A stretch of 64,000 bases of DNA. It comes from an uncultured Anaerolineales bacterium. Its GTDB lineage: Bacteria > Chloroflexota > Anaerolineae > Epilineales > Epilineaceae. The DNA is taken from assembly GCA_964651245.1 (NCBI GenBank), contig CAZYVI010000008.1, positions 51,437 through 115,436 of the forward strand, in the 5' to 3' direction. The position numbers and the translations under genes are program-made. Position 1 is the stretch's first letter. The number at the start of each line of letters is the position of its first letter. The notes below the pieces were generated by a model that worked only from the letters and a program-made list of their open reading frames with translations, searched no databases and was not told where the DNA came from. Below, in pieces: positions 53,713 to 57,961 of the stretch.

Positions 53713-53774
53713 GGATCCAGCCCGCGATGGTACGTGGTTCGCGTATCAGGCAGGATAACGTAGCGGGCAGAGGC

Positions 53775-53811
53775 GGCCAAGGGGGCGTCTGTCGTGGTTG
53801 CCCCCTTGGCC
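53775..53811. terminator. 12-bp stem hairpin downstream of the DGPF gene
   Basis: GGCCAAGGGGGC-N13-GCCCCCTTGGCC. Confidence 0.5.
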
Positions 53812-53840
53812 GTCGAGGCAGTGCTCCACCCTCTGGCCCC

Positions 53841-54272
53841 CTACACCCCCTGCTGCGCCTCCACCTGCGCCCGCAGCCGCTCCTCTTGGGCCTGCAGCTC
53901 CGGCGTGTACTCGGCGCCGAAGTCCTCAGCCTCGAAGACCGGTCGGATCTCGATCACCGAGTCCTCGAGCATCGGGTTCGGGCAGCGCTTGACCCACTCG
54001 ATCGCCTCGTCCATCGAGCGCACCTGCCACAGCCAGAAGCCCGCCACGAGCTCCTTGGTCTCGGCGAACGGGCCGTCGACGACGGTCCGCTTGGGGCCCG
54101 AGAACAGGACGCGGGCGCCCTTCGAGCTCGGGTGGAGCCCTTCGCCGGCCAGCATGATGCCGGCCTTCACCAGCGCCTCGTTGTAGTTGCCCATGTCGGT
54201 CATCAGCTGCTCGCTGGGCATGACGCCCGCCTCGCTGTCGGCCGTGGCCTTGACGATCACCATCACGCGCAT
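53841..54272 (-). CDS. YCII-related DGPF-domain protein
   Basis: GEGLHPSS, VVDGPFAETKELVAGFW and IEIRP; AGGAG RBS. Confidence 0.93.
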   Translation of the reverse strand: MRVMVIVKATADSEAGVMPSEQLMTDMGNYNEALVKAGIMLAGEGLHPSSKGARVLFSGPKRTVVDGPFAETKELVAGFWLWQVRSMDEAIEWVKRCPNPMLEDSVIEIRPVFEAEDFGAEYTPELQAQEERLRAQVEAQQGV

Positions 54273-54333
54273 CTTCGTTCTCCTGGTCGTTGGGGTTCGG
54301 GGGCGAGGCCGCGATCTCGGCCGCTATCCATGC

Positions 54334-54360
54334 GTCGAACGGCGCGACGCGCAATCGACA
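54334..54360 (-). promoter_or_regulatory. ECF42-type promoter TGTCGA-N17-CGAC
   Basis: TGTCGA (54355-54360) and CGAC (54334-54337) on the minus strand upstream of the DGPF gene match the ECF42 consensus as I recall it. Confidence 0.6.
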
Positions 54361-54467
54361 CGATGGGCGACGACATCGCGAAATTCGTCGACGTTCGTCC
54401 GCCGCCTCGGTCGCACCGGCGATGCGCCCCACCTCCCGCGCCGTTGCGCCCCGCCGGCGCGCCGGCG

Positions 54468-55508
54468 CTATTCCGCCCGCGCCAGCCGCGCCGCGATGCG
54501 GCGGGCCATGCCGCGGCGGCGCGGATCGAGGTCGAGCTGGTGGGCGCCGTACTGCAGCAGGATGCGATCGCTCTCGGTCAGCGGCTCGGTGCGGGCCGTG
54601 ATCTCGTCGATGACGCCCCGGAAGTAGGTGCCCCAGTCGGGCCGGCGACCGTCGATGTCGTCGAAACCGTAGGCGTGCGCCAGCGTCCACGAGCCGAAGA
54701 CGCCGCCGGCGCGGGCGCCGACGTGCGGGTCGGCGGCCAGGGCTGCTACGGCGCGGCCCACGAAGCACGGCGTCTCCGACTGCGCGAAGTGACGGTCGGC
54801 GGCGACGGCGTCGCGCCAGTTGGCCTCGGTGACGCCGAAGTGGGCCAGGACCGCCTCGGAGCGCAGGAAGCCCGGCGTCACCGTCAGCGCGGTGACGCCG
54901 GTGCCCGCCAGGTCCTTGGCCATGCTGTAGCCGAGCCGGATCGTGGCCAGCTTCGCGAGGTCGTAGAAGAGCGTCCCGCGGTAGCCGTAGAAGTCGCCGT
55001 CGGTGACCTCGACGATGAGCCCGCTGCCCTGGGCCACCATGAGCGGTGCGCCGTGACGGGCGGTGATGACATGGGTCCAGACGGCCGACTCGAGCATCTG
55101 ACGGCCCTTGGCTAGATCGAGGCACCAGAACGGCGTGTCCCACTCGGTGAGCGGGTCACCGCCCCAGATGTCGTTCACCAGCACGTCGAGCCGACCGAGG
55201 TCGCGCGCCACGCGCTCGAACAGCGCGATCACCTCGGCTTCGACGCCGTGGTCGACCCGCACTGGCACGCCGATGCCGCCCGCGGCATCGACGAGGGCGG
55301 CGGTCTCCTCGATCGTCTCGGGGCGACCGTCGGCGGTCGCCGACGACGACCGTCCGGCGGCGCGGCTGCTGCGGCCGGTGCACACGACGGTGGCGCCGGC
55401 CTCGCCGAGCATCCGCGCGATGCCGCGCCCGGCCCCGCGCGTCGCGCCGGCGACGACGGCGACGCGGCCGGCGAGGGGGCGGGGGTGGGTCGTGGTCGTC
55501 GCGGTCAT
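54468..55508 (-). CDS. Short-chain dehydrogenase/reductase (SDR)
   Basis: Start MTATTT (ATG 55508). Motifs GATRGAGRG, LDVLVND and YDLAK (YxxxK). Confidence 0.92.
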   Translation of the reverse strand: MTATTTTHPRPLAGRVAVVAGATRGAGRGIARMLGEAGATVVCTGRSSRAAGRSSSATADGRPETIEETAALVDAAGGIGVPVRVDHGVEAEVIALFERVARDLGRLDVLVNDIWGGDPLTEWDTPFWCLDLAKGRQMLESAVWTHVITARHGAPLMVAQGSGLIVEVTDGDFYGYRGTLFYDLAKLATIRLGYSMAKDLAGTGVTALTVTPGFLRSEAVLAHFGVTEANWRDAVAADRHFAQSETPCFVGRAVAALAADPHVGARAGGVFGSWTLAHAYGFDDIDGRRPDWGTYFRGVIDEITARTEPLTESDRILLQYGAHQLDLDPRRRGMARRIAARLARAE

Positions 55509-55800
55509 GGCGCCATTGTAGCGTCGCCGCTCCGCGCCGCCCGCCGGCCCCTGGACAGCTGTCGCGCTCCCCTGCCGCGCCCGGCGGGCCGGACTTGACC
55601 CGCGTCGGCCGCGGTGCGCTATAGTGCCGCCGTCCACAGCTCACCCGGTTGCCCGCCAGGAGCCGCCGCGCCCGCCACCCCACGCCCCGGTCCCGCGCCG
55701 ACCGCCATCGAGCAGCCAAGCACCAGGGCTCTCCCAATCGCCCTCCCGCGCGCCGATGCGCCCGTCGCGATCGTCCCGATCCGACGGCCCTGTCGGTCCG

Positions 55801-56068
55801 TGCGCCGGGCACCCCGCGGCGGGTAGCGGCCGACGACGGGGCGGGTGGAGTCGACGAGGTGGAGGTTCCCGGACGCGCCGGGCTAACCCGCGGGCGGTGG
55901 CCGCGGCCGGAGACCCGGCAGCGGACGCCGCGACGGCGATGCGGACAGCGTCGCCGGCGGGGAACATTCGACAGATCGGTGGATGCCTCCTGGGCTGGCA
56001 CGGCCCAAGGTCTGCTCTCCTGAACCCACAAGCCGCCGCCAAAGCCGCCGGGCGACCGGCGGGACAAC
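55801..56068 (+). ncRNA. glmS ribozyme: glmS ribozyme (GlcN6P riboswitch), variant with a large insertion
   Basis: GCGCC at 55802, GACGAGG at 55853, GGAGG (55861) pairing with CCTCC (55986), TCGA-CAGA-TCGG, GGATG, a P3-like stem, and AAAGCCGCCG-GGCGAC-CGGCGGGACAA P4. It lies directly upstream of glmS. Confidence 0.8.
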
Positions 56069-56113
56069 GCGGTCGGCAGTGCGTGCGACACCGAACCGCA
56101 TCAGGAGAGCACC

Positions 56114-57961
<1,848 letters not shown>

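Follow-up and report, generated by a model that had tools for sequence, protein, structure and literature searches.

An Anaerolineae-type glmS ribozyme with an expanded P1, a two-hairpin insert and a possible anti-Shine-Dalgarno element in a Chloroflexota glmS leader

The window analysed here, a 64-kb stretch of contig CAZYVI010000008.1 from an uncultured Anaerolineales bacterium (Chloroflexota), carries a glmS gene whose leader very probably holds a complete Anaerolineae-type glmS ribozyme-riboswitch, with a predicted cut at A55719^G55720, an expanded P1 and a large insert. A spacer of 605 nucleotides (nt), 55509-56113, with the ribozyme inside it, separates glmS from a divergent dehydrogenase gene and, since this upstream neighbour is divergent, the entire spacer can be taken as leader and promoter of glmS. 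The start codon of glmS is the ATG at 56114 and the 3' end of the ribozyme is at 56082, which places the element in the 5' untranslated region (UTR) of glmS. An earlier note on this DNA, made from the letters alone, had already identified a glmS ribozyme here, and the identification stands: the core blocks occur in order upstream of glmS, with GACGAGG-U-GGAGG-UU (55853-67) followed by AUUCGACAGAUCGGUGGAUGCCUCC (55966-90), P3 and P4/P4.1, the glmS family of Rfam gives a signal, and the downstream open reading frame (ORF) combines a GATase with two SIS domains. The features are collected in Table 1.

Table 1. Features of the glmS leader and its surroundings (window coordinates; SD, Shine-Dalgarno).
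Feature	Position	Strand	Basis or remark
Short-chain dehydrogenase (SDR) gene, divergent upstream neighbour	54471-55508	-	Pfam: adh_short 5e-21
Candidate sigma-70-type promoter, TTGACC (55595-600), 19-nt spacer, TATAGT (55620-25)	55595-55625	+	Read from the sequence; genus conservation
P0 5' strand GAGCAGCC, 3-10 nt upstream of the scissile bond	55710-55717	+	Pairing with 56012-17
Predicted cleavage site A(-1)^G1 = 55719^55720 and P2.2 5' strand G1 C2 A3 C4 C5 A6 G7	55719-55726	+	Conservation; numbering of PMC7125110
Expanded P1, 126 nt; base helix GGCUCU 55727-32/GGAGUC 55847-52	55727-55852	+	Interior fold uncertain
U^GCGCC of the earlier note; chance pentamer inside P1, not the cleavage site	55801-55806	+	Congener comparison; pentamer count
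P1 distal hairpin, stem CCCCGCGGCGG/CCGACGACGGGG, 7-nt loop GUAGCGG (55823-29)	55812-55841	+	Family conservation
Core block GACGAGG-U-GGAGG-UU: P2.1 5' strand C55855 G56 A57, P2 5' strand 55861-65, two linker U	55853-55867	+	Invariant in 101/101 cores
Insert hairpin A, CCCGG-ACGCG-CCGGG	55868-55882	+	Comparative
Joiner CUAA	55883-55886	+	YUAA-type, conserved: CUAA 34, CCAA 11, UUAA 7, UGAA 4, others
Insert hairpin B, 75-nt three-way junction: stem CCCGC 55887-91/GCGGG 55957-61, B1 55894-55931, B2 55934-55956	55887-55961	+
Joiner GAACAU (class consensus GAAAAU)	55962-55967	+	GAAAAU 52, GAACAU 7, GAAGAU 6
Core block UCGACAGAUCGGUGGAUGCCUCC: P2.1 3' strand U55968 C69 G70; P2.2 3' strand C55977 G78 G79 U80 G81; P2 3' strand 55986-90	55968-55990	+
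P3, UGGGC/GCCCA, loop UGGCACG	55991-56007	+	Rfam alignment; folding
P3.1 pseudoknot, GCAC 55998-56001 with GUGC 56079-82; 3' end of the ribozyme proper at 56082	55998-56082	+	Covariation
P3-P4 linker, 22 nt (consensus ~3): P0 3' strand CUGCUC 56012-17, anti-SD UGCUCUCCUGA 56013-23	56008-56029	+
P4/P4.1: P4 GCCGCCGC/GCGG-U-CGGC, internal loops CAAAG and GACAAC, P4.1 CCGCCGG-GCGA-CCGGCGG	56030-56078	+
SD region UCAGGAGAGCA, perfect 11-nt complement of 56013-23	56101-56111	+
glmS, glutamine--fructose-6-phosphate aminotransferase, 615 amino acids	56114-57961	+	Pfam: 2x SIS 1.2e-56, GATase_6 1.5e-16, GATase_7 3.1e-11

The relatives used for comparison came from two sources. When 40 related genomes were searched at the DNA level, 26 of 41 genomes proved to carry the element, always with both halves and with a variable spacing between them, and the same architecture was seen across the class and in 15 of the 17 genomes of the window's family. 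Two family genomes, G008 and G012 (completeness 97% and 76%), gave no match by DNA search or core pattern. A pattern scan over one genome per prokaryotic species (GACGAGG-N-GGAGGUU, 21-81 nt, UCGGYGGAUGCCUCC) returned 89 stretches, five from Clostridia and the rest from Chloroflexota metagenome-assembled genomes (MAGs) labelled Anaerolineae, Caldilineae, Thermoflexia and the like; one of them was a Candidatus Epilinea brevis contig, genome G011 of the window's own family. Ten further metagenome loci were added to the scan stretches and 101 non-redundant cores were assembled. The type of the window's family is called f1, and 24 f1-type sequences formed the set for the comparison of the P1 tip.

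Comparison with these sequences places the predicted scissile bond at A55719^G55720, which is 82 bases upstream of the site proposed in the earlier note and has the canonical A at position -1. In all f1-type sequences AGCACCAG(G), which reads A^GCACCAG in the window, is kept, and the base of P1 that comes after it abuts GACGAGG; in every family member the strand following the cleavage motif is complementary to the 6-8 nt just before GACGAGG, as in the consensus P1. Among 82 sites assigned automatically, 79 had A at -1 and the exceptions that were inspected turned out to be mis-assignments. On the published numbering of the core (PMC7125110), G1-G7 correspond to 55720-26, P1 to 55727-55852 and G26 onward to the sequence from 55853. 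The GCACCAG segment would form P2.2 with CGGUG 55977-81 through the pairs C55721-G55981, A55722-U55980, C55723-G55979, C55724-G55978 and G55726-C55977.

One of these pairs departs from the consensus on both strands. U55980 stands in place of the consensus C opposite A55722, giving the partner strand UCGGUGG where UCGGCGG is usual; in the crystal-structure numbering the pair is G3-C55 (Andreasson et al., PMC7125110), here A3-U55. In the automated site assignments we found GCACC together with UCGGUGG in 18 cores and GCGCC together with UCGGCGG in 62, with no true exception once the apparent ones had been inspected and recognised as mis-assigned, and the compensatory, family-wide change of G3 to A and of its partner C to U is the sole deviation of the core blocks from the consensus. 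Barrick and Breaker found no significant covariation in P2.1 and P2.2 (PMC2258182), and the natural A3-U variant, as read from the alignments, is of some interest, though it represents a single evolutionary event. A separate change in the same strand was seen at locus L064 of an Anaerolineae MAG, which reads A^GCGCU; here C5 is replaced by U, which would wobble with G53, and this is the one change tolerated at that pair in the deep-mutational study (PMC7125110).

The earlier note had the ribozyme begin at 55801 and cleave at U^GCGCC, as a natural variant with U at -1. GCGCC is indeed present at 55802-06, where a G.U wobble would allow it to pair with GGUGG, and a short P1 could form between CACCC 55810-14 and GGGUG 55843-47, but that helix would leave GAGUC 55848-52 unpaired beside GACGAGG. 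The pentamer is expected by chance in a genome of 70+% G+C: the window has 1127 copies, or about one for every 114 nt of each strand, two further copies lie within P1 itself, and three congeners read GCGAC or GUACG in its place. The upstream A^GCACCAGG and the P1 base, by contrast, are kept in all family members together with the compensatory A3-U pair. A start at 55801 is thus extremely improbable and the claim of a U at -1 is refuted. The P1-tip loop UAGCGGCC was also considered as an alternative cleavage site and was rejected, as no P2.2 is possible between it and CGGUG.

With cleavage predicted at A55719^G55720, every ordered block of the core was found: A^GC(R)CC at 55719-24, GACGAGG at 55853-59, GGAGG at 55861-65, UCG(A) at 55968-71 and CGGCGGAUGCCUCC at 55977-90. 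The block at 55853-67 maps to G26-U40 of the Thermoanaerobacter tengcongensis ribozyme (numbering of PMC7125110). P2.1 would consist of C55855-G55970, G55856-C55969 and A55857-U55968, and P2 of GGAGG 55861-65 with CCUCC 55986-90, so that the pairing potential for the double pseudoknot of P2.1 and P2.2 is intact. The nested 'P2a' hairpin of the Rfam model (UCGA...UCGG) corresponds to the 3' strands of P2.1 and P2.2 in the solved structures. The peripheral domain is also complete, with P3, the P3.1 pseudoknot and a P4/P4.1 that has a GNRA loop (GCGA) and AAA/ACAA internal loops and was aligned with high posterior probability to Rfam model positions 108-157. P3.1 covaries between lineages, being GGCAC/GUGC(C) in f1 and GCCAC/GUGGC elsewhere, and because its second strand lies at 56079-82 the ribozyme ends at 56082 and not at 56068; the span of 55801-56068 given in the earlier note is in reality about 55710-56082, with linked features out to 56111. 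At five other loci (L055, L069, L104, L107 and L051) the 3' strand of P2.1 reads GCG instead of UCG (joiner GAAAAGCGA) with GACGAGG unchanged, so that P2.1 in these lineages would have either an A.G opposition or a shifted register.

The insert is large: in the window 98 nt (55868-55965) lie between GGAGGUU and AUUCGA, compared with 2-3 nt in the Rfam consensus. In T. tengcongensis a linker of 4 nt, UUUA (residues 39-42), joins P2 to the P2.1 strand at this position (PMC7125110). From GGAGGUU to UCGG the length is 108 nt in the window, 81-109 nt in its genus and 46-81 nt, with two hairpins, in most Anaerolineae; the five Clostridia, like some genomes of Anaerolinea and Caldilineales, have 26-31 nt and a single hairpin. 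Two hairpins were present in 82 of the 101 cores and one in the remainder, and the order within the module is constant: hairpin A, a YUAA joiner, hairpin B of any length, a GAAAAU-type joiner and the UCG of P2.1. Hairpin A occurs as 63 distinct sequences among the 101 cores, always at the same position, with a loop that is mostly GNRA and is N-CGC-N in f1. Hairpin B is sharply defined, the fold of 55887-55962 having a minimum free energy of -58 kcal/mol (z = -5.09 against dinucleotide shuffles) and accounting for 84% of the ensemble.

Covariation of the insert among relatives, a check which the earlier note had suggested, was examined in a structure-blind MAFFT alignment of 63 sequences with 500 shuffles and slid controls. 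Both hairpins were recovered by RNAalifold, and 94.4% of their cells could pair, compared with 79.4% in shuffles. Double changes were counted in 196 cells, compared with 58.5 +/- 7 after shuffling (none of the 500 shuffles was as high) and 26-69 in the slid controls, and they fell in six of the seven pairs of hairpin A and in all five basal pairs of hairpin B. The length of the gap, the covariation and the stability of hairpin B together show that the ~100-nt structured insertion described in the earlier note is real, and the view of an expanded variant holds: the core linker contains a structured domain that the Rfam consensus lacks. It is not peculiar to this locus: every Anaerolineae-type core has a two- or one-hairpin module, and the comparison identifies the insert of the window as an oversized form of the class-wide two-hairpin module, in which only the size of hairpin B is special. 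The closing helix TTCCC/GGGAA proposed in the earlier note was rejected; it is genus-specific, the relatives cannot form the pairing, and it conflicts with hairpin A, to which CCC 55868-70 belongs.

As for its role, the module most likely serves as a structural brace at the periphery of the double-pseudoknot core. Features such as A-rich joiners and a loop that is GNRA or otherwise conserved are typical of tertiary contacts. The earlier note had suggested that the insert might add a second regulatory input, and the enlarged hairpin B could be read as a second ligand-sensing or protein-binding domain, being a well-defined 75-nt three-way junction that adjoins the active-site strands. Its loops and junction, however, share no sequence even among congeners: L004, like genome G002, builds the same branched shape from an unrelated sequence, and in L003, L005 and L137, as in genomes G001 and G003, hairpin B is a single long hairpin without branches. 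Across the class its size varies from 12 nt, a 4-bp tetraloop hairpin, to ~80 nt, some lineages lack it, and the insert matched no other Rfam family when 55500-56300 was scanned. Such a second sensor is therefore very improbable. Lacking conserved sequence and any Rfam match, hairpin B is more likely a freely expanding peripheral arm, a structural expansion; the other suggestion of the earlier note, that the insert is simply tolerated, fits better, as does a structural brace.

P1 is enlarged as well, with 126 nt in the window and 57-160 nt in the family compared with ~27 nt in the Rfam consensus; lengths of 100-130 nt are sporadic in the class. Its base, where GGCUC 55727-31 pairs with GAGUC 55848-52, abuts GACGAGG, as in the consensus, and RNAalifold on the five P1 sequences of the genus gave no informative structure. 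At the tip of P1, or on its 3' branch, all 24 f1-type sequences have a loop G/A-U-N-G-C-G-N closed by GG/CC, on a stem that covaries (GGCGG/CCGCC, GACGG/CCGUC, UGCGG/CCGCA). In hairpin A of this family the GNRA loop has been replaced by N-CGC-N. The GCG of the P1 tip and the CGC of the hairpin A loop are invariant in the family, and several of the changes beside them would allow a fourth pair. On these grounds the P1-tip loop GUNGCGN may kiss the N-CGC-N loop of hairpin A and tie the insert to P1, the support consisting of the invariant GCG/CGC and a few compatible flanking changes, that is, of few independent events. No fixed motif resembling a GNRA receptor was found in the short P1 of other families. 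The P1-tip sequence N-GCG-N-CC also resembles the ancestral A-GCGCC cleavage motif with one additional base (loci L006-L015 and L136-L143).

Detection by Rfam is affected by these expansions. The whole window gave zero matches at the gathering threshold. With an E-value threshold, the best match in 55500-56300 was the glmS family RF00234 (28.3 bits, E = 1.3e-4, model positions 20-160 on 55935-56080), which was the sole meaningful family signal there and the sole such match in the 3.97-Mb assembly. A search with the Rfam glmS model, also suggested in the earlier note, thus supports the assignment in that no other family gave a signal, and fails to reach the cut-off. The low score is due to the 126-nt P1 and the 100-nt insert and not to loss of the core. 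Relatives in which P1 and the insert are shorter match model positions 1-167 with 38-64 bits, above the cut-off, and in a class sample 202 of 401 genomes match at E <= 1e-3, 140 of them above the cut-off, typically over 210-280 nt; in Anaerolineae relatives the model treats the two-hairpin module as an unaligned insertion of 53-56 nt. By its two-hairpin module with YUAA and GAAAAU-type joiners, and by a predicted P0 helix across the cleavage site and an anti-Shine-Dalgarno (anti-SD) segment in the P3-P4 linker, the window copy belongs to an Anaerolineae-type subclass, which is an informal grouping and not a curated family.

Several points weigh against the reading of a complete ribozyme with a bracing module. 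The score of the window copy is below the gathering threshold of RF00234 (37 bits) and the alignment wrongly takes one arm of the insert for P1; the interior of P1 does not fold better than shuffles (z = -0.77), the P1-tip hairpin of the window's genus contains a G.A mismatch (G55819/A55833), and no tertiary partner was identified for the proposed brace. In a laboratory minimal core, compensated P2.2 pairs were rescued only in part, remaining at least 35-fold below the consensus (PMC7125110), so that the A3-U variant could be slow. The low Rfam score, the very large P1 and insert and a non-consensus P2.2 pair that may be costly on the laboratory data could also be expected from a decayed, non-functional relic bloated by insertions. 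Nevertheless, the conserved blocks of the core are all intact, with the same sequence throughout the family, and each of the 18+ sequences with the altered P2.2 pair has the matching change on the other strand. There is covariation in P3.1, in the insert hairpins and in P0, and 15 of the 17 family genomes retain the element. We consider a relic quite unlikely and conclude from the comparative evidence that the ribozyme architecture is selectively maintained in the glmS leader.

Further pairings involve the region that surrounds the core. In the window, GAGCAG 55710-15 and CUGCUC 56012-17 give a run of six Watson-Crick pairs that would bridge the cleavage site, and we refer to this helix as P0. 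In 82 relatives the 8-10 nt before the cleavage site are complementary to a segment just 3' of P3, and the strands differ by lineage (GGAGAAGGU/ACCUUCCUCC, GGGGGAAG/CUUCCCC and GAGAAGC/GCUUCUC); matched strands gave a mean duplex energy of -13.8 kcal/mol versus -12.1 kcal/mol for mismatched strands (p = 1.3e-6). The same linker is complementary to the SD region of glmS, and the 11-nt run of the window was reached by none of 20000 shuffled linkers and by two of 5817 genomic 22-mers. Class-wide, linker/SD duplexes averaged -15.9 kcal/mol when matched versus -13.2 kcal/mol when mismatched (p = 4e-8), with covariation such as CUCUCCCGAG/UUCGGGAGGG and UUCCUCCUGAGA/UCUCAGGAGGAA. P0 and the anti-SD helix share 5 nt in the window and overlap fully in other lineages. 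Further upstream in the leader, CCAGGAGC at 55657-55664 contains a CAGGAG complementary to CUCCUG 56017-22 of the anti-SD; this segment could be a second masking strand and is not kept in congeners, which have GAAAGG near that position.

The glmS ribozymes are a textbook class and the RNase J1 route by which they act is established in Bacillus. In the window, transcription would probably start near 55633, from the TTGACC-19-TATAGT promoter, which implies a leader of ~87 nt before the cleavage site; given this promoter, the transcript would therefore include the upstream cleavage site. The GCGCTATAGTGCCGCC block of its -10 region is kept in all four genus relatives and TTGACG occurs also in L004. 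A consensus promoter scanner found no promoter at the locus, because it allows only spacers of 16-18 nt and the spacer here is 19 nt. Binding of glucosamine 6-phosphate (GlcN6P) would activate cleavage at 55719/55720 and lower the expression of glmS. The product with a 5'-OH would be removed by RNase J, as in the Bacillus-type route, and a homologue of this enzyme is encoded in the genome (550.6 bits, cut-off 400). The linker anti-SD may also shut off the translation of glmS.

We also propose, tentatively and with less than even confidence, a translational switch in three parts. The P0 5' strand, which is often SD-like, would occupy the anti-SD of the P3-P4 linker before cleavage; cleavage induced by GlcN6P would disconnect this 'anti-anti-SD' from the mRNA; and the freed linker anti-SD would sequester the glmS SD, through 11 bp in the window. 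Such a switch would act instead of, or in addition to, the triggering of decay by RNase J. Partition-function folding weighs against it, as the SD of the window is ~95% paired with or without the 5' fragment, and so does the modelled unpaired fraction of the SD in the window's family, which does not shift (0.206 versus 0.211). In the non-f1 lineages with two hairpins the unpaired fraction falls from 0.40 to 0.33 on cleavage, with 27 sequences shifting in the expected direction and five in the opposite one (p = 4e-5). It is apparent that the comparative signal for the P0/anti-SD route is real and that the energetics are not decisive; a kinetic, co-transcriptional version of the switch is possible. 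That P0 and the anti-SD covary across the class suggests an expression platform that differs from the RNase J1 route of Bacillus; if confirmed, it would couple RNA self-cleavage to gene expression in a new manner. The main interest of the element lies in this class-wide arrangement more than in the insert itself.

Compared with the canonical RF00234 ribozymes of Bacillus subtilis, B. anthracis and T. tengcongensis, the window copy shares the location in the glmS 5' UTR, the A^G scissile step, the blocks GC(R)CC, GACGAGG, GGAGG and UCG...CGG(Y)GGAUGCCUCC, the potential for the P2/P2.1/P2.2 double pseudoknot, P3/P3.1, P4/P4.1 with its GNRA loop and AAA/ACAA loops, and a genomic RNase J. It differs by the 100-nt two-hairpin module in place of the 4-nt P2-P2.1 linker, the 126-nt P1, A3-U for G3-C, the 22-nt P3-P4 linker with its putative anti-SD, the predicted P0 and the score of 28.3 bits. 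The Anaerolineae ribozymes of other families (e.g. L017, L018 and L021; several of these ribozymes are above the Rfam cut-off) share the module, P0, the linker anti-SD and P3.1, but have A^GCGCC with UCGGCGG, a P1 of 15-35 nt, a GNRA hairpin A and a hairpin B of 12-40 nt, whereas the window's family has GCACC/UCGGUGG, the N-CGC-N loop and the conserved GUNGCGN hairpin at the P1 tip, and its genus has the largest hairpin B seen. Clostridial ribozymes from Oscillospiraceae/Ruminococcaceae MAGs (L032, L033, L050, L066 and L120) score ~70 bits with RF00234 and also carry an extra hairpin between GGAGGUU and GAAAAUCGA, from which it follows that insertions at the P2-P2.1 linker are not restricted to Chloroflexota. 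Theirs is a single short hairpin (e.g. GCGC-GAAA-GCGC), and they differ in having a canonical P1, no second hairpin and linkers with no anti-SD complementarity (-5 to -8 kcal/mol).

The ribozyme of the window belongs to a known class, and its presence upstream of glmS is expected. In the searchable full-text literature, which does not include McCown et al. (2011, RNA 17:728, and 2012), the module, P0, the linker anti-SD and A3-U are undescribed, and no paper in that literature treats Chloroflexi glmS ribozymes in any detail. As far as the comparison of sequences goes, the features specific to the window or its family are an internal GCGCC that is easily mis-assigned, the A3-U pair, the P1-tip hairpin and the largest hairpin B. 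Standard annotation misses the window copy and most of its family, so that glmS looks unregulated in that lineage. The Anaerolineae versions indicate that the P2-P2.1 linker, beside the active site, can take 26-109 nt of structured RNA and that G3-C55 of P2.2 is replaceable by A-U in nature; the linker insertions and the A3-U pair are useful natural examples to set beside the deep-mutational maps of the core.

Two minor observations concern the upstream neighbour. An ORF at 53727-55115 (+ strand, 462 amino acids) that overlaps the dehydrogenase gene had no Pfam match and is probably spurious. The dehydrogenase itself likely starts at the ATG at 55506-08, rather than at the upstream GTG of the mechanically called ORF.

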